From NCBI GenBank assembly GCA_010093815.1, contig ML996565.1: a stretch of DNA of 64,000 nucleotides; one strand, given 5' to 3'. A program made the translations under genes and the position numbers. How positions within the stretch are numbered: the first letter of the stretch is position 1; the number at the start of each line of letters is the position of its first letter. This document shows, piece after piece, positions 31,440 through 38,988 of the stretch. The DNA is from Pseudovirgaria hyperparasitica. Its lineage: Eukaryota. The notes under the pieces were generated by a model. The model saw only the letters and a program-made list of their open reading frames with translations, was not told the origin of the DNA and did no database searches.

Positions 31440-33169
31440 ATGGAAGGCTAGGCGTAGTGGTAGTGTATAAGAAAGGAAGAGGTTGGGGAGGAGGCTGTTG
31501 GAGCAGAGCAGCACAAAACACGGCAGAGAGCCCCAGTCGCTATGATCAACTAGCACTGCACGCACAAACGACGATACGCCACAGGACTAATGAGTATTAT
31601 AATGAACAAGATTGCGAGAGGGAGAGAGCAATTGGTGTTTTGGCCAGGGCGGAGAAAGACAATGGAACAAAGCTAAGTGTGTTTTGTTGGGCTTCACTGG
31701 CAACAAACAGGCCAGCACCGTGCACTCAGTCAGACACAGACTCACTCATCTTGACTGTGCACAGTCTGAAGTGATGATTAGACGGTCATGGATAATTAGT
31801 AGGAGTATCCATTGTATTCAGTGGTACACTGGCTATGCTAGAGCACGAGCGCGGTCCTGACTGTGGTTGTAGATGACGTGCACTCTGCCATCTGGGCGAC
31901 GGTGAGGGTCTTGCCAGGGAACCGTAGATAATTCAGTCGAAAGAGCCAAAGCTAAACATCCGCATGACTGGTGATGGACTTAACTGAGTGCCGATTGTCC
32001 TTCTGCACGTCATCATCGTGCCTGACGATGATGTAGTTGGTGCATCTGGAGTAGATCCGCGAAAGTCCGGGTGCCCAACGTAGGTGTGTGTGTTTGTCTG
32101 TGTGTTGTCGTTGTGTTGTAGTTGTTGTTGTAGTAGAGATGCAGTATGATGGATGATTGTTCTAGCATGGCCATCCTGAGTAACTATCGTGTATAGAGGT
32201 GGTGGTGTAGTGTATTACCGGTACATATATGGCTAGCAGACGACGAGATATCGCATTGCATCATGATCGGATCAGGCCAAGGACATTCTCTCCCGACGAC
32301 TCCTGTCTGTGTATGCATGTAATGTTAAATGTCCAGTACACGCCGTGAACATCATTAGTCAATTGTCCGCGCGAACGGACATGAAGCTTCGTTGCGGCGT
32401 CTAGAAAGCTTCTCGAAGCCTGCAAAAACCACAAAACGGGCTGTGGGTGCGCGCCCCTGTCCCCGGCGTCAGGGGCTTGACTGAAGTGCAGCCGCTAAAA
32501 GAGAGTCAGTCCCCCCTTAACCGCCGCCGCCCGCTGGTGAAAGTGCTGTACCCGCTAAAAGATGGGCGGGAAAAAGCAGAATTAGCTGCCCATGCTCCCT
32601 ATTTCCGCTGCTTACGGGGGGGTCTCGGGTGCCTAAACTGGCTGCCATGGTGCCTAAAAAATACTGCGGAATAACTGCTGCAACTGCACTCATCTCTCTG
32701 TCCCCCTCTACTGTACAACTCCGCTGCACATCATCCTCTTCCACCCACAACTCTCTCTCTCTCTTGTCATCCTTCAACATCCTCATCCTATCCATCCAAT
32801 TCACCCTTTTCATACAAGAGAGTACATCCATACGCCATCAGCTGTCATCTACAATCTACCAGTCACTCGTCATTCACTCTCCACATAATACAAGAAAGAC
32901 AACAAGACACATCCACGCCTCTGCTCCGGATCGTCGTTGGATCCCCCAGTCGCTAGGACCAGCACTGCGCCCGCGCGCGCCCTGGCTTTTTTTCTGCTGC
33001 TCCTCTCCCCGCCAGCCTTTTCCACCTTGACACCACCTCCACCTCCACCCACAAAGCTCGACCCACACAACAAGCCCTTGCTTGCCCCTCTCTACTCCGA
33101 CGACACTCTCCAGCTTCATCCTGATCTCTCTTCTTCTCTTCTTCTTCTTCTTGCTCTTCTCCCTCCTCC

Positions 33170-34552
33170 ATGTCGGACCTGCCATCCGACTTCGCCAATG
33201 AACTGTCTGCCCTGACTCGCGAGTACCTGAGATCCCTGCCGACAGACCATCTCCAGTTCTGCGCCAATTACTTCCAGAAACGTCTCCAGTCTCAGCGTGC
33301 CGAGTTTGTGCTCGCACAGCAACTTTCTTCCACAAACGCCGGCGCCATGGCCACAACAAATTTCCCCGGCAGCAATCCTTTCGGTTCTTCTCCCAGTAAT
33401 ACCGCCATGCACGCCCTTCAGGAAGAGGACGAGACCGACCAGATGACCTCTCCCACCGCCTCGTCCTTTCCCCGCAACATCATGGACAGACCTGCTCACT
33501 CCTCATCCAAAGCCGAATCTGGCTTTGGAAATTTCGGCGGCTTCGCTCCGGCTGGCAGCAGTGCTACCTCCAAGTCCTCCGCTCCTCCTCCTCCTTCGTC
33601 CTCCTCCGCCTCGGATCCTCAAAGCTTTCCTTCAAACTATAACCTCAATCGCCGCACATCCGTCTCCGCTGAGTCTCTCAATCCTACATCCGCTCAGAAT
33701 GACAACTGGGCGCCACCCTTCCATCAAAAGACGGCAGATCAGTGGTCTCGACTGAAGACGGCCGTGTCGGGCAACTTCCTCTTCGCGCCCCTCGACGACG
33801 ATCAGTCTACCGCCGTGCTGGGCGCGCTGCAAGAGAAGCCGATCCCGGCCAAGGACATCAAGGTTATATCGCAAGGTGATGTTGGTGATTTCTTCTACGT
33901 TGTCGAGAACGGCTCCTTTGACATTTACGTCAATCCGTCTGGCAAGATAGCGTCGGGACCAGACGGGCTTGGAAGCAAGGTTGGCAATGTCGGTCCGGGT
34001 GGCTCTTTTGGAGAACTCGCATTGATGTACAACGCTCCACGCGCTGCCACGGTCGTATCGACCGAGCGTTCCACCTTGTGGGCGCTCGATCGCGTCACCT
34101 TCCGCCGCATCCTCATGGACAGCGCATTCCAGAGACGACGCATGTACGAGGGCTTCCTCGAGGAGGTCCCGCTGCTGACCTCGCTCACGCCATACGAACG
34201 CTCGAAGATTGCCGACGCCCTCGAAACCCGCCGCTACCCGGCCGGCACCACCATCATCAAGGAAGGCGATGTTGGCGAGGCCTTCTTCATCCTCGAAAGC
34301 GGCGATGCAGAGGTCTTCAAGCGTGGCACCGAACAGCCCGTCAACCGATACAAGAAGGGCGACTACTTTGGAGAGCTTGCCCTCCTCAACGACAAGCCCC
34401 GCGCGGCAAGCGTTGTCAGCAAGACGGAGGTCAAGGTGGCCACGCTGGGCAAGGACGGATTCCAGCGGCTGCTGGGTCCGGTAGAGGGCATCATGCGCCG
34501 CAATGATCCCTCCAAGGCTTCTGTAGAGAGCGTGGATCCTCTGGCGTCGTGA
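33170..34552 (+). CDS. pkaR: cAMP-dependent protein kinase regulatory subunit, 460 aa
   Basis: N-terminal D/D helix, inhibitor site RRTSVSAES, two cNMP domains (FGELALMYNAPRAAT; FGELALLNDKPRAAS). Confidence 0.97.
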   Translation: MSDLPSDFANELSALTREYLRSLPTDHLQFCANYFQKRLQSQRAEFVLAQQLSSTNAGAMATTNFPGSNPFGSSPSNTAMHALQEEDETDQMTSPTASSFPRNIMDRPAHSSSKAESGFGNFGGFAPAGSSATSKSSAPPPPSSSSASDPQSFPSNYNLNRRTSVSAESLNPTSAQNDNWAPPFHQKTADQWSRLKTAVSGNFLFAPLDDDQSTAVLGALQEKPIPAKDIKVISQGDVGDFFYVVENGSFDIYVNPSGKIASGPDGLGSKVGNVGPGGSFGELALMYNAPRAATVVSTERSTLWALDRVTFRRILMDSAFQRRRMYEGFLEEVPLLTSLTPYERSKIADALETRRYPAGTTIIKEGDVGEAFFILESGDAEVFKRGTEQPVNRYKKGDYFGELALLNDKPRAASVVSKTEVKVATLGKDGFQRLLGPVEGIMRRNDPSKASVESVDPLAS

Positions 34553-35672
34553 TTTTGTGTTGCTAACAGCTGTTCAGACCGCCACAGGGGCGAAGGAGAC
34601 CTGCTTCAGGCTCGGTTTCTGCTGGTGAGCCGAAAAGAGTGCGACCGTGAGAACTGGATCGGGGTGTTTGTGTGATGCGCACAACCGACCGGTATGCGGC
34701 CACGGTCGAGGACGAGATTCCGGGGCGGGCTGGCGGGCTGGCGGGCTCGACAGGCGCAGATGTTGGTTGATGCGGGGATCCTGGGGCAGACCGCTTTCCA
34801 GACGATGAACATTACCATACCCACCACCCTTTCACCTACCTAGTGTGATGAGATTCACCCGCGACTTCTTTTCTCCCTACACGGCGTTTTATCTTTCCTA
34901 CGGTCCTGTACTGCTGCTCCTGGGCGTGTAGCCAAGGGGGGGCCTGTGTCTTATTTGGCAAGCAGCCTGTATCTATTCTGGCAAGTCCACGGCGGCTTGC
35001 AAAACCTCAGTAGTGGTGGTGGTAGTAGTAGATGAAGAATATATATATATACATCACATTGCCTCATTTAGTACCTTCGCGTGGATTCAGTCTATGTCTG
35101 TCCTACTTTGTCGTAGTGTAAATAATGATTATGTGATGCAGTATCGCGAAATCCCAATGCATGCAATGCATGTTGCACGCACGGTTCACGTCTTGTTTCT
35201 ATCAATAGCGCCGCTCAACATGCCAGGGGACGGCGCGCCGGCCGGGGCGGGCGTGTGTGATACGTCACACACGTTTTCGTTCCAAGGATGGTCCAAGCTC
35301 CCTCCCTCAGCTTCTTACAGCTACCACCTGTGCATGAAACTTTCCTCTCTCTGTTCTGCCATTCCTGTTCCCTCACTAGTCGTCAAAGCTGTATACCGAC
35401 AGTAGCTTCACCACGTATCCACCACACGACCTCGCGAATCGAATCGAACCCGGAGACGTCGCGCCCTGACGATTGCGCTTTAGCTGCTGAGCTTGCCTGC
35501 CTTGCCTGCCTCGCGGTTTCGACGGAGTGTTGGTGGCTATTTTGCGGTCTCAGATCTCACTTTGCGAAACGTGTTCGATACAGCCTCGTTCATCTCCTCT
35601 GATTCTCTATCCTGAAGACTCCTCTCCTCCACCCACTCAACAACTCACCCAACCCCCTCCTCAAAGAGAGCA

Positions 35673-36238
35673 ATGGACTGCATTCCCCTCCCCATCGTGT
35701 GCTTCCAGTGCGGAACGTGAGTATAAACTCCTTTTTGCTTGGTTTGCTTGGTTTGCTGTGGGGGAATGGATGGATACTGTATAGATTTGTATCAAGAGAG
35801 AAAGAGGCTAACGCGGTAGACGAAACGGGCAGTGATCAGAACCCCTGCCATTGTAAAGTCGTAGGGCCGACGCTTGGGTTTGTGGTTACGGTTGGGATGG
35901 CGGTATGTTTTTTTCTTCTTCTACTTTTCTTCGGTTCTTTTTTCTGTTGTCACTTTTCTCACTTTTTATTTCGACGTTCTGCTGGAACGTGCTGCGTATG
36001 CTGGATGTGAACGCAAGAGGCTAACACACGTGACAGATTGTGTGCTGGCCCGCGAGTCTGCTGTGCTGTTGCTGTGCGACGGAGACGGGGAAGAAGTATG
36101 TGTTTTGTCTCTCATAACGCGGAGAGGGGATGCATAGGAGACCTGTGCGTGTGTGCTCTTGCTAATACGTTCCTGTACAGGGTGCTGGCCTTGCCGGTTG
36201 ATACGGGGAATAAGATTAGTGGGGCGATTCCGATTTAA
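35673..36238 (+). CDS. Cys-rich single-TM microprotein, 76 aa; exons 35673-35716, 35833-35902, 36037-36095, 36181-36238
   Basis: Three introns (GTGAGT, GTATGT, GTATGT donors; GCTAAC/GCTAAC/GCTAAT branch sites; CAG acceptors) give MDCIPLPIVCFQCGTDQNPCHCKVVGPTLGFVVTVGMAIVCWPASLLCCCCATETGKKVLALPVDTGNKISGAIPI*. Confidence 0.8.
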
Positions 36239-37428
36239 TGGGTGACTTTGGGGGGTATAAGAAGGAAGAAAGGGAGGAGTGGAGGGAAGATGTGTGAAAG
36301 GAGATGTATGGGAAAGGAGATGTATAGGAGAGGAGAGGAGGGATAGAAGGGGATGAGCAGGGTAATAAGGGAGTGAAGGACGATGTTTCTGATTCTGCGG
36401 AAAGTACATCTTCTTTGTCTTTTGTCTGTTGAGTCTGAGTCTGTGACTGCTCTGCTGTAGTATGCGTGGAATGTCGTGATGGTGATGATTATTATTGACT
36501 GTACTGCGCATCATCACCACTGCACTGCGCATCATCATCATCATCACCACTGCCCAAACACCATCACTACTGCCGAAACACCCATCCACCCAACACGCCC
36601 CCTTACCACCCCTTACCGCAATGCATCGCATCGCAACGCTCCGCAGCGCAGCGCCCCATACCGCCATGCATCGACGTGCGACAACTCCCCACCCACACCA
36701 ACACCATCGCCCCATTCCAAATCATGCATCGCCGTGCAATCTACACCATGGGTGTTGCAGTTTCCCCGACGACCACAACCCCACAACAGCGCCATATGCG
36801 TTCTGATTTTGCGCTGCTGTGGTGGGTGGGTGTGGTTTGTGGATAAGTGGGAGGAGGAGGGCGTGGGTGTGGGTTATATAGACAGGGGACTGGGTGCCGG
36901 GTAGGGGTGTGTGCTGAGTAGAGGTTAGAGGGTGATGGGTAGGGTGGTGTGCTGGGTGAGGGGTGCTGGTGCTGGGTAAGTTGATAAGGGAGGAGTATGG
37001 AGGCGTTTGCTGCGTATGGGGGTGTCGGGTAAGTGAAGGGTATGGACGGGTGTGTGCCGGGTAAGTGCATATAGTTTATATAAGTGGGTGCTGGGTAGGA
37101 GTATACAAGTCAGGTGACGGGTACAGATATATAGGCGAGGTAACGAGTGCATATGGAGGTGAGGTAGCGGGCATGGTTCATAGTTCATAGTATATAGAAA
37201 GGAGTGGAGAGGTTAGGGGATGTGTAGAGGTTTATAGGTAAGGTATAGGTATATTTATAGTTGTACAGTTAAGGTTATACGCATGTAGCCAAGGCAACAG
37301 TTGAGACCTATAAGGCGACCTTACGGGTAGAGGGGTAAGGTTAAGGTATAGAAGTAAAAGTAACAGGTATATAGGTAAGGTAATGTATGGCTTTCTGTGT
37401 GTACGAGTTCCAGCTACTAGAATCCCGC

Positions 37429-38988
37429 CTAGGATGTGCGCCATAAGATTGATGAGAGCCATCTAATCTTATCACCGACGCAGTGAACGGTCAGTGGGAC
37501 CTTTAGAAACGAACGCTGGAAGAGTTTGTAGAATTCCTGACAGTCGGGACACATGGCATCTCGACTGACCGTTATACATCCTCGTGGGAGATTTGTCGGA
37601 AGCACTGCTTCGAGTTCGGAAGTTACCCCTATACTTTCTTCGTCCTCGTACTTGAAGATGTAGTGCCGATTCATATAGTACGCAACCAACTGTTTCTCAA
37701 CATGAGAAGCATAGCTTTCACTGACATCGTGGCCGATCCTTGCACAGAGTTGCTTCGCTCGGCGCGTCCAGATCTTATTATTGAGAGTGTCCTCTCGAGA
37801 TGTCTGCGAATACCCACTCATTGCACTGATGACCGGGTACGAAGGCCCACGATCCAAGCGACCAAAGGCCTTTGTTCCTTCTCGGTCCCCAAGCTTATAC
37901 ATGGTATCAGCCTGGTAGAAGCACAAAGACGTCGCATCTGCTTTGTGAAAGTACCCTTGGCGAGGGCCGCCGATAGGGACTGGGAATCGGTCTCCTCGAA
38001 GCTCCTGCTCCTTCCGGCACAATAGAGCATGAATCCTTGCGCGCTGTCGGTTTGAGTCCGTACGCACTGTCATCATTCCATTAGCCCTTTCGATTCGCTC
38101 TGCGTCGTTGCGTTCTGCCACGGCTGCGAGGTCACTTGCTCGGTGTCCATTCGCGTCCATGGAGAGGACATCCGCACCATTATTTACGAGAAAGTCCACA
38201 GTCTCAAAGCGGCCCCACAGAGCGGCTTCCATGAGGGCTGTTCGACCATAATGGTCAATCCGGTCGATAGGCATACCTCTCTCCGTCAATAATTCCACCG
38301 TTTGGAGGCCATTCTCTTCTGCCGCTGCGAGTATTACTCCGTTCGCACCTTGAATGTTCACGTAACTGGCGAAGTCGTCGTCTGGATACATTCTGAAATG
38401 ATTATCGAGTTTCTGAGTATCTCCTTGAGCACAAAAAGACACATAGAATTTCCTGCGTAAATTTGGGTCTGCCATCGGATCGGTGAAACAGCGATATCGG
38501 TCAGGTTCATGTTGTCGTGGATCCGAACCTTGACTATCAGACAATGTTGTCCTTGCTAGCGACTCTGTGATGGCATCCGTGCCATCAGGACCGGGCTCGC
38601 TCTTCCCATTCCTATATTCTTCAGGATCGTCAAAATACACTCCATGCAAGCTCTCGTACTCCTCCAAGAGTCGACGTGGCGGGTTGCCGCGTCTTAAAGG
38701 ATCCTACATCAAGCCCTGGCTCGTAACGAGGTGTATCTTGCCAGAATCTTTATCCAGCTCCCAACCGTACGCGTCGGTCAAGTTGTCGATTTCGTCGGGC
38801 CAGACTATACGGTAGGATTTTCCTCCGCTGACATCGATGCAATCCGCTGAACGTCGTTCTCTTCTGCGCCTGGAATGCTCTGTAAGACCGTGACCATGTG
38901 AGTCAAGACAAAATGGACATAGCACTCGGAAGGAGCTGGCATTCCACCAAAGGACCAGTGCTGGTACCAAGTTTTCGGTATCGGGCAT
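37429..38988 (-). pseudogene. Zn-ribbon + ankyrin repeats + nucleic-acid deaminase (DYW-like/SsdA-like) gene, 519 codons, interrupted by one in-frame TAG at 38706-38704 (pseudogene or recoded gene)
   Basis: ORFs 38988-38704 and 38667-37429 are in the same frame (..QGLM*DPLRRGNPPRRLLEEY..). Motifs: CPFCLDSHGHG; ankyrin YGRTALMEAALWGRFETVDFLVNNGAD; deaminase AMSGY...SHVEKQL...MCPDC. Confidence 0.8.

Follow-up and report, generated by a model that had tools for sequence, protein, structure and literature searches.

The FXYD, Pmp1 and sarcolipin-type single-span regulators of P-type ATPases, the PMP3/RCI2 stress proteolipids and the CYSTM proteins are all tiny membrane proteins. Several of them have an invariant short ectodomain motif, a conserved glycine in the helix and juxtamembrane cysteines with basic residues, and are connected with ion or stress tolerance in fungi and plants. 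They are brought in here as functional analogues of the protein described below, with no claim of membership; in sequence no relationship was detected, as 95 members of the present family gave no Pfam match to these groups at E<=10, including CYSTM (PF12734) and PMP3/RCI2 (PF01679).

The second described system is a family of plant proteins of 74-77 residues that bear the UniRef names "Little protein 1" or "Cold-regulated protein". The link of this family to rice OsSALP1 is by name, through the UniRef entry "Little protein 1" (Oryza meyeriana P0189), a review and a gene table. The review places "little protein 1 (SALP1)" at the plasma membrane and notes its up-regulation in moss during desiccation, and the gene table equates Os01g0644200 with SALP1. 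As summarised in a citing paper, OsSALP1 increases proline and the expression of OsP5CS and makes rice more tolerant of salt. A 2.41-fold rise under salinity was measured for a wheat probe matched to Os01g0644200, and Physcomitrella "Little protein 1" stands among listed drought-induced genes. As represented in the papers that cite it, functional study within the plant family concerns the rice gene only (Yuan et al. 2016). LOC_Os01g45640, considered as the rice family locus, proved to be an unrelated gene.

The DNA analysed here is a stretch of 64,000 nucleotides from Pseudovirgaria hyperparasitica, called the window. It carries a gene for a protein of 76 amino acids that is a new fungal member of this known, barely studied family. 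The reading of the locus as a whole, in which the gene would be a fungal orthologue of the plant family and its product a single-span, stress-linked accessory subunit, is given a probability of about 0.72.

Gene structure, transcript and surroundings

Positions 35673-36238 (+) hold what is almost certainly a genuine, transcribed, four-exon protein-coding gene. The exons join into an ORF of 231 nt for 76 residues, ten of them cysteines, and introns 1-3 are all of the GT..AG type. The same exons and the same peptide had been proposed in the initial annotation, and the joints between them are present in two contigs. The features are as follows.

33125..34552, + strand: neighbouring open frame, pkaR (PKA regulatory subunit), with RIIa (E 3.9e-8) and two cNMP_binding domains (E 2.3e-40)
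35353..35672, + strand: 5' UTR, about 320 nt, without upstream ATG; its start is the contig start, and the true 5' end may differ
35673..35716, + strand: exon 1, coding part, 44 nt, from Met1 to the first two bases of codon 15, with Cys3, Cys10 and Cys13
35717..35832, + strand: intron 1, 116 nt, phase 2, donor GTGAGT, CTAAC at 35808-35812 with branch A at 35811
35818-19 and 35831-32, + strand: acceptors of intron 1, the unused proximal AG and the used distal AG
35833..35902, + strand: exon 2, 70 nt, the nearly invariant core from Asp16 to Ala38, with N18-P19-C20-H-C22-K and the G26-P-T-L-G30 start of the predicted membrane helix
35903..36036, + strand: intron 2, 134 nt, donor GTATGT, branch-like CTAAC, joint in both contigs
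36037..36095, + strand: exon 3, 59 nt, the second half of the predicted membrane helix (C41-W42-P43), the Cys48-51 run and G56-K-K
36096..36180, + strand: intron 3, 85 nt, donor GTATGT, branch-like CTAAT, joint in both contigs
36181..36238, + strand: exon 4, coding part, 58 nt including TAA, the C-terminal helix (predicted) and the conserved I74-P75-I76 end
36239..36950 (end approximate), + strand: 3' UTR, about 0.7 kb; contigs unbroken to 36700 and beyond

All three intron junctions, for which the initial annotation had proposed a check, were found in contigs from two public runs (X1 and X2), which belong to one sample of one study, have their kind given as '?' and are not recorded as RNA. 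They are taken as cDNA because the introns are missing from the contigs. Each run gave one contig (1256 nt for X1 and 1262 nt for X2) with no mismatch to the window and with joints at 35716>35833, 35902>36037 and 36095>36181, such that every intron is skipped exactly, and depth is zero in bins that lie wholly within introns. The contigs start at 35353 (X1) and 35366 (X2) and carry 243 and 262 further letters, respectively, beyond 36700. The ATG of the microprotein is the first of the ~1.27-kb transcript, with none in the 320 nt before it.

The reading frame needs the distal AG of intron 1, as had been recognised, and both contigs use it (35832/35833). The proximal AG had been said to give an immediate stop and thereby a possible splice switch. 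A stop does follow, but it is reached after four further codons, leaving a protein truncated after 19 residues, and the idea of a switch found no support: the proximal AG is not conserved and lies 8 nt past the branch A, the distal one 21 nt, and AGs as near to the branch A as 8 nt are normally skipped in splicing. An AG at the proximal place was found in 0 of 29 related introns, and other AGs 4-11 nt upstream of the acceptor in 5 of the 21 introns with a homologous acceptor. Only the distal AG appears in the contigs, which drop rare isoforms and would miss a minor use of the proximal one.

It is highly improbable that the transcript acts chiefly as RNA, or that alternative acceptors of intron 1 turn the protein off. 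The transcript is admittedly long for an ORF of 231 nt, with its 3' UTR of about 0.7 kb, and splicing at the proximal AG would truncate the protein; however, that AG is too near the branch A for normal use, neither contig shows its use and none of the 29 related introns has an AG at its place, conservation of the DNA is confined to coding exons, the protein sequence is kept across kingdoms, and an Rfam search returned no family at threshold. The sole Rfam match over 35000-37200 was archaeal sR11 on the minus strand (21 bits against 39, E 0.52), which is chance level, so that there is no sign of an intronic snoRNA.

Comparison of the transcript region with related metagenome loci gave 68 DNA matches from 53 of 80 loci, all of them on exon 1 (15), exon 2 (31) and exon 3 (22); none fell in the introns, exon 4 or the 3' UTR, and three extend 29 nt into the 5' UTR. 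A break near profile position 37 is common to 55 of the 80 loci and the full window-like pattern occurs in 35; most loci also have, from about position 56, a separate terminal segment. Exon 2 alone matches 39 of 40 candidates. The evidence for the ORF, drawn from DNA and contigs, makes up a pattern well outside what chance would give. A Pfam search with a His-rich ORF inside the 3' UTR gave no match.

The upstream gene is pkaR, as first annotated, since its open frame encodes RIIa and two cNMP-binding domains. Linkage to pkaR was found at 9 of 80 loci (5 of 42 with at least 2.5 kb upstream and 4 of 38 with shorter flanks) and, being lineage-limited and uninformative on function, was dropped as a functional clue. 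The stress element CCCCT/AGGGG occurs three times in the 800 nt upstream; the mean for the window is 0.94 and the 95th percentile 4, so that this count is not significant.

Family range and descent

The suggestion in the initial annotation that small land-plant proteins share this pattern, making a cross-kingdom family, turned out to be right. A profile search returned 178 cluster representatives at E<=1e-3, 86 of them at E<=1e-10, and the minority of matches that carry names span fungi (Pezizomycotina, Saitoella and three chytrids) and Viridiplantae (chlorophytes, Spirogloea, bryophytes and angiosperms). The fungal profile finds plant proteins with E 1e-13 to 1e-16 over positions 8-76 of 76, among them Punica P0086 (E 2.8e-13, positions 8-76) and P0065 and P0066 (~7e-16). 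The window peptide is 40.6% identical to Punica P0086 and 44.9% to Oryza meyeriana P0189 over 69 aa, and its identity is 92% with the Paraphaeosphaeria protein and 43% with that of Chlamydomonas. In Protein Atlas the best score among named clusters was 0.77, without a family; unfiltered, its own ascomycete cluster scored 0.94 and a Streptophyta cluster 0.93, a plant lead that was confirmed by HMMER.

Fungal, algal and plant members share one order of motifs: CxxCG, NPC-x-CK, GPTLGF, W-P, G with basic residues, P, and a carboxyl terminus I-P-I/F. Plant Little protein 1 proteins differ in having Glu-Trp-Pro and an Arg/Lys-rich RHxKGRR, where the fungal ones have Cys-Trp-Pro, the Cys cluster and GKK. 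It is very probable that the 76-residue product is of the same family as these plant proteins. Across 84 aligned members from fungi, algae and plants, G26, P27, P63 and P75 never vary, and conservation is at least 90% at C10, C13, G14, N18, P19, C20, K23, T28, G30, F31, P43, G56 and I74. Eight Pezizomycotina share 35 invariant columns, and a core of ~20 residues is almost invariant throughout this group, unchanged across classes.

Orthologues from Pezizomycotina (for example Paraphaeosphaeria, Pyrenochaeta, Alternaria, Zymoseptoria, Aspergillus and Histoplasma) are 59-92% identical over the full length and have the same exon logic. Dozens of Pezizomycotina carry them under the label hypothetical protein, none with a described function; in the databases many of the models stop short or run on through introns, and a few bear unrelated names. 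The exact window peptide was absent among 292 fetched proteins. None of 95 members reached a Pfam cut-off, and in the copy searched the family has no Pfam model.

The initial annotation had left the choice between vertical and horizontal inheritance to a phylogeny, and the tree looks vertical. It needs one change each for Fungi and Viridiplantae and branches in the order of species, namely chytrid, Saitoella and Pezizomycotina on one side and chlorophytes, Spirogloea, bryophytes and angiosperms on the other; it was built from only 78 columns, and the separation of the two kingdoms is weakly supported (36/0; 31% of bootstrap trees). Transfer between plants and fungi in place of common descent is considered very unlikely, even if the distribution looks patchy, since animals, Basidiomycota, Mucoromycota and Saccharomycotina are all missing among the named matches. 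The one change per kingdom and the species-like branching tell against it, and with members in three chytrid lineages and in chlorophytes any transfer would have been very ancient. Intron positions also seem to differ between the lineages, as suggested by read-through models: the intron lies after CRCK in the three such models nearest the green-lineage members, and after CGT, near GPTLG or Met-Ala, and after GKK in fungi.

Predicted architecture of the protein

The architecture is predicted from the sequence and from structural models. A short N-terminal beta-hairpin would be clamped by four conserved cysteines (C10, C13, C20 and C22) and followed by one membrane helix of about 23 residues. 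This helix would open with G26-P-T-L-G30, an invariant packing motif of the GxxxG type, and carry W42-P43. The Cys cluster C48-51 would stand at the end of this helix, ahead of Lys-Lys, and a second helix would run to the carboxyl terminus with its conserved I-P-I. The hairpin and helices at ~26-48 and ~55-74 are common to two AlphaFold2 models with pLDDT 76.7 and 69.3, a moderate confidence, the other four models of each run scoring 53-68. The hydrophobic segment of 24 residues has a mean hydropathy of 1.79, and 90 of 96 sequences contain the GxxxG motif.

The N-terminus would lie outside or in the lumen and the C-terminus in the cytosol, and this single-pass N-out topology is favoured slightly over the alternatives. 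In this orientation the N-terminal cysteines would be paired in disulfides, and C48-51 would be sites of S-acylation. Of 94 sequences, 65 have more positive charge on the C-terminal flank than on the N-terminal one, 23 have the same on both and 6 have less; the flanks of the window peptide carry 0 versus +1, and orientation is weakly determined in fungi. The CCCC run pointed out in the initial annotation exists in the window peptide but is lineage-specific, other fungi having CGCC or CGCG and plants one Cys or none.

A second possibility, which leaves the gene and the family as they are, is a monotopic, zinc-binding, membrane-anchored protein like LITAF or BRI3. The four N-terminal cysteines would then bind Zn in the cytosol, both ends would be cytosolic, and the 23-residue stretch would be a hairpin in the cytosolic leaflet, kinked at Trp-Pro, in an endosomal or vacuolar adaptor. 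The likeness to these families lies in small size and in a Cys knuckle (here the CxxC...CxC set directly N-terminal of the hydrophobic stretch) beside a Pro-containing hydrophobic membrane segment, after which come Cys and basic residues. The stretch has at its centre Pro43, which at least 90% of members keep; in plants Glu-Trp-Pro occupies this place, the Glu falling in the middle of the hydrophobic stretch, which is odd for a plain membrane-spanning helix. Two Saitoella members match Pfam BRI3 (PF10164) weakly (E 0.011 and 0.018, profile 63-96 of 106), but these are the only 2 of 95 members to do so, and the better of them, at 16.7 bits, stays below the gathering threshold of 25.9 bits, which no member reaches, so that membership in BRI3 was rejected. 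A second Cys knuckle after the hydrophobic segment is a defining trait of LITAF and BRI3; no member has such a CxxC in the alignment, and as the LITAF-like zinc ribbon (PF10601) also gave no Pfam match at E<=10 among the 95 members, membership there was rejected too. Both models moreover show one continuous helix of membrane-spanning length, and the four-Cys set is not kept in every lineage (Saitoella, Diaporthe, Monoraphidium and others are without one or two). The LITAF/BRI3-like arrangement is accordingly regarded as unlikely.

Among PDB sequences a profile search found no match at E<=10. Foldseek against the PDB gave a best E of 7.1, and a wide VIA-align search a best Z of 4.9, to unrelated generic helical hairpins. 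Prediction of a two-copy complex (homodimer) scored 0.00 with the verdict 'no answer', which is evidence in neither direction.

Possible function and significance

The family had been called one of unknown function. For plants this is not quite true, because the name "Little protein 1" is tied to rice OsSALP1. For the fungal gene, a literature search with generic terms, locus tags and motifs found no phenotype or expression study.

In the secretory pathway or plasma membrane, the GxxxG helix of the single-span protein would pack against a conserved membrane partner. The protein would act as a small accessory or regulatory subunit that aids tolerance of osmotic or salt stress, as has been reported for rice OsSALP1. 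Such a stress-related accessory function is put forward tentatively. A more specific and rather speculative proposal is that an ancient single-span microprotein, inherited vertically in fungi and green plants, could serve a conserved membrane transporter as its obligatory regulatory subunit, comparable to FXYD or Pmp1 on P-type ATPases. The nearly invariant ectodomain knuckle and the GxxxG helix would dock on the transporter, and the acylated Cys cluster would tune the contact. If this were true, the fungal gene and rice OsSALP1 would control ion and osmotic homeostasis by one shared, undescribed mechanism.

The locus reveals a deeply conserved eukaryotic microprotein for which neither a Pfam model (in the copy searched) nor a mechanism is available. 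It also exposes an annotation problem: because the exons are only 44-70 nt long, gene callers cut the gene short in many genomes, run on through its introns or give it a wrong label, so that a family profile would repair many models at once. Through the link between fungi and plants, plant stress biology gains a tractable fungal system, and fungal biology gains its first pointer to a function, which may lie in osmotic or salt stress and membrane homeostasis.

Structure and splicing of the microprotein gene

The four-exon microprotein gene of Pseudovirgaria hyperparasitica is real and its model exact, with transcription and splicing that follow the prediction. Its parts, and the neighbouring features discussed below, are as follows.

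Exon 1: 35673-35716 (+), 44 nt
Intron 1: 116 nt, donor GTGAGT, acceptor AG, CTAAC shortly before the acceptor
Exon 2: 35833-35902 (+), 70 nt
Intron 2: 134 nt, donor GTATGT, acceptor AG, CTAAC shortly before the acceptor
Exon 3: 36037-36095 (+), 59 nt
Intron 3: 85 nt, donor GTATGT, acceptor AG, CTAAT shortly before the acceptor
Exon 4: 36181-36238 (+), 58 nt including the stop
3' UTR: 36239-36950 (+), end approximate
His-rich open reading frame within the 3' UTR: 36464-36901 (+)
pkaR: 33125-34552, upstream
Ankyrin-repeat open frame: 37432-38703 (-)

The exons joined by coordinate amount to 231 nt, that is 76 codons and TAA, and encode the same 76-aa, 10-Cys peptide as proposed in the initial annotation; retention of any of the three introns brings in a stop. 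A search of public runs for the locus found two matching runs of unrecorded kind, X1 and X2, from one sample and one study. Each yielded one contig (1256 and 1262 nt) that was placed on 35300-36700 with 0 differing letters, in the segments 35353 (or 35366)-35716, 35833-35901, 36036-36095 and 36181-36700, and that extended another 243 or 262 letters beyond 36700. All three expected joints are present in both contigs and, given a +1 cut at intron 2, are GT..AG as predicted, while depth was 0 in both runs over bins wholly within introns. Because the introns would be covered if the library were DNA from this organism, we infer that the contigs are spliced-RNA assemblies from this single study; they reveal neither true transcript ends nor rare isoforms. 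The ATG of the microprotein is the first in the joined transcript, the preceding 320 nt being devoid of ATG.

The 3' UTR, of about 0.7 kb, is long relative to the 231-nt coding region, and no DNA-level conservation was seen when it was compared with related loci. The reading frame inside it comprises 141 codons from an ATG, is His-rich and of low complexity, and had no Pfam match.

The dependence of the frame on the second AG of intron 1 (35831-32) was borne out, since the proximal AG (35818-19), if used, leads to a stop four codons later, and the distal AG is the sole intron-1 acceptor used in both contigs. The further suggestion of a splice switch between the two found no support. The A of the branch-like CTAAC is at 35811, 8 nt before the end of the proximal AG and 21 nt before that of the used one; AGs as near the branch point as 8 nt are normally skipped. 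Of 29 distinct related introns, 21 share the acceptor AG at the homologous position and none shows an AG 13 nt upstream of it; other AGs occur 4-11 nt upstream of the acceptor in 5 of those 21. As related introns lack a counterpart of the proximal AG, the alternative acceptor is not conserved; minor proximal use may still occur, the data being those of contigs.

Genomic neighbourhood

The upstream frame 33125-34552 is pkaR, as its RIIa and two cyclic-nucleotide-binding domains establish, and the position first assigned to the microprotein gene, downstream of pkaR, thus stands. In 80 related metagenome loci (L001-L080), a same-strand upstream pkaR was found in 5 of the 42 whose upstream flank reached 2.5 kb or more and in 4 of the 38 with a shorter one, and in two more loci pkaR lies downstream. 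The linkage is lineage-limited, and no functional conclusion is drawn from it. The distance from the pkaR end to exon 2 is near-constant (738-782 nt) in seven of the loci (L051, L053, L054, L057, L059, L061 and L062), all with the exon pattern of the window, which are probably one fungal lineage repeatedly sampled.

On the opposite strand, the 424-aa frame 37432-38703 carries ankyrin repeats (Ank_4, E 2.8e-11) together with a C-terminal match to Pfam SsdA_C (E 2.2e-7; 31.8 bits, the cut-off being 27). SsdA_C is the C-terminal domain of single-strand DNA deaminase toxin A, and the pairing is unusual for a fungal gene.

A family common to fungi and green plants

The first homologue search, with the unaltered window stretch of exon 2 and its read-through (58 aa) as query, gave 39 matches among 40 candidates, mostly 57-100-aa 'hypothetical proteins' from Dothideomycetes, Eurotiomycetes and Leotiomycetes. 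A second search from the closest of these gave 100 matches among 106 candidates, the named ones all Pezizomycotina. The window peptide is 92% identical to a Paraphaeosphaeria protein and 89% to Pyrenochaeta and Alternaria proteins, which marks the source as a Pleosporales-like fungus; its exact sequence was absent among 292 proteins fetched. Eight full-length members share 35 invariant columns, 22 of them consecutive (C11 to F32 in the numbering of the family protein P0007).

At the DNA level, the transcript region gave 68 matches from 53 of the 80 metagenome loci: 31 in exon 2, 22 in exon 3 and 15 in exon 1, three of the last extending 29 nt into the 5' UTR. Introns, exon 4 and the 3' UTR had no match. 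The 80 loci are broken into exons at matching profile positions (about 13, 37 and 56). Exon patterns, counted as loci and not lineages since one organism may recur across metagenomes, were window-like in 35/80, without intron 1 and with a break at 37 in 20/80, without intron 1 and with the second break at 29-34 in 20/80, and other in 5/80. Intron positions thus vary in the family, intron 1 occurring in about half of these loci and the second intron at about 37 or about 29-34. In three unnamed read-through models (P0134, P0153 and P0165) the intron would instead follow CRCK; the labelled members closest to these models belong to the green lineage.

When a profile built from the eight fungal proteins was run over 1.84 billion representatives, 178 of them matched at E<=1e-3, of which 86 reached E<=1e-10. 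Thirty matches were looked up by exact sequence, and 19 of the 30 clusters held named members.

Named members of the family found with the fungal profile
Angiosperms: Punica, Nelumbo, Dioscorea, Oryza, Linum, Fragaria
Mosses and one liverwort: Physcomitrium, Ceratodon, Sphagnum, Calypogeia
Streptophyte alga: Spirogloea
Chlorophytes: Chlamydomonas, Monoraphidium
Chytrids: Caulochytrium, Geranomyces, Gonapodya
Taphrinomycotina: Saitoella
Further Pezizomycotina: Diaporthe, Trichophyton, Pseudogymnoascus, Xylariaceae

Animals, Basidiomycota, Mucoromycota and Saccharomycotina were not seen among the named matches, which are a minority of all matches, so that this is not evidence of absence. Searching from the Oryza member gave 40 matches among 43 candidates, the named ones all land plants. 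Identity to the window peptide over 69 aa is 40.6% for the Punica, 44.9% for the Oryza and 43.5% for a Chlamydomonas protein, and an Atlas look-alike search returned a Streptophyta cluster at 0.93, in agreement with the plant link. On this evidence the resemblance to land-plant proteins, proposed in the initial annotation, is real, and the family is common to fungi and green plants.

The choice between vertical and horizontal transmission was addressed by a maximum-likelihood tree of 33 members, which needs one change of the Fungi/Viridiplantae label and follows species order within each kingdom. Both features favour vertical descent, and we read the history as old vertical descent with losses, with a kingdom split that is weakly supported (36/0). 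A long Geranomyces branch lies on the plant side. The Physcomitrium and Ceratodon members fall inside the angiosperm clade beside Vitis (83/83), with Sphagnum and Calypogeia branching earlier; this placement could reflect paralogues or short-alignment noise.

Orthologues are already present in many genomes as annotated hypothetical proteins, and Pfam thresholds were reached by 0/29 and 0/66 members with matches listed to E<=10. Database models are often wrong, with introns read through (inserts after CGT, after GPTLG or Met-Ala, or after GKK/GKE), truncation or a frame shift after exon 2. A few bear unrelated names ('polyol transporter 2', 'COP9 signalosome complex subunit 1', 'CWF19-like protein mug161', 'Nucleic acid-binding OB-fold'), and P0162 (Gonapodya sp., 578 aa), with the family domain in its first ~40 residues, is probably two adjacent genes merged by the annotator.

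Several plant members are named 'Little protein 1' or 'Cold-regulated protein' in UniRef, and by name the family is linked to rice OsSALP1. The Oryza meyeriana member has 74 residues, which we take to be the length of OsSALP1 as well. In the literature, Os01g0644200 and SALP1 appear as the same gene in one gene table, Yuan et al. is cited as the OsSALP1 reference, and a citing paper states that OsSALP1 raises OsP5CS expression and proline, with better salt tolerance. A wheat array has a probe matched to Os01g0644200 induced 2.41-fold by salinity, a review describes a cluster of three duplicated 'little protein 1 (SALP1)' genes up-regulated in a desiccating moss, and a Physcomitrella table places 'Little protein 1' among drought-induced miRNA targets. 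The literature searched contained no papers on the fungal genes.

Protein anatomy and a possible working

Residues are numbered on the window peptide, which coincides with the 76-aa Paraphaeosphaeria alignment reference. In 84 members G26, P27, P63 and P75 are invariant, and 90% or more of the members have C10, C13, G14, N18, P19, C20, K23, T28, G30, F31, P43, G56 and I74; C22 reaches this level in a 66-member set. Two AlphaFold2 runs on different alignments agree in fold plan, with moderate confidence (best models 76.7 and 69.3, others 53-68): a predicted small beta-hairpin pairs CxxC with CxC and is followed by a helix at ~26-48, a short loop with C48-51 and a second helix at ~54-74. A 24-residue segment has a mean Kyte-Doolittle hydropathy of 1.79, and the GxxxG pair occurs in 90/96 sequences. 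Of 94 sequences, 65 carry more positive charge just after the helix than just before it, 23 carry the same and 6 carry less (mean charges +2.1 after and +1.0 before); by the positive-inside rule this favours an N-terminus out, C-terminus in orientation, the signal being clear in plants and weak in fungi.

From this topology onward, each step is one that we infer. The four N-terminal cysteines would lie in an oxidising compartment and form two disulfides, and the Cys cluster beside Lys-Lys would lie at the cytosolic face. Cys clusters next to basic residues at that face are commonly S-acylated. A monotopic, zinc-binding anchor resembling the membrane-anchored zinc-ribbon-type families LITAF and BRI3 (PF10164) is the main rival; it would suit the Trp-Pro at the centre of the hydrophobic stretch, the Glu before it in plants and two weak BRI3 matches in Saitoella, but the second knuckle is absent, BRI3 matched just 2 of 95 members and both models have one continuous helix, which makes it unlikely. 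For the single-pass protein, the invariant GxxxG helix start and the strictly kept free C-terminal I-P-I/F would point to fixed contacts with other proteins. Topology, helix start and C-terminus together suggest a subunit that assists or regulates a conserved membrane partner and, if the rice reports serve as a guide, may have a part in osmotic or salt stress; such a stress-related function is put forward tentatively, at a probability of roughly 0.3.

The fungal gene is a new, uncharacterised member of a known, barely studied family and not a new kind of system. Its interest lies in the extreme conservation of a tiny protein, in the missing mechanism and in the link that makes the family testable in fungi.
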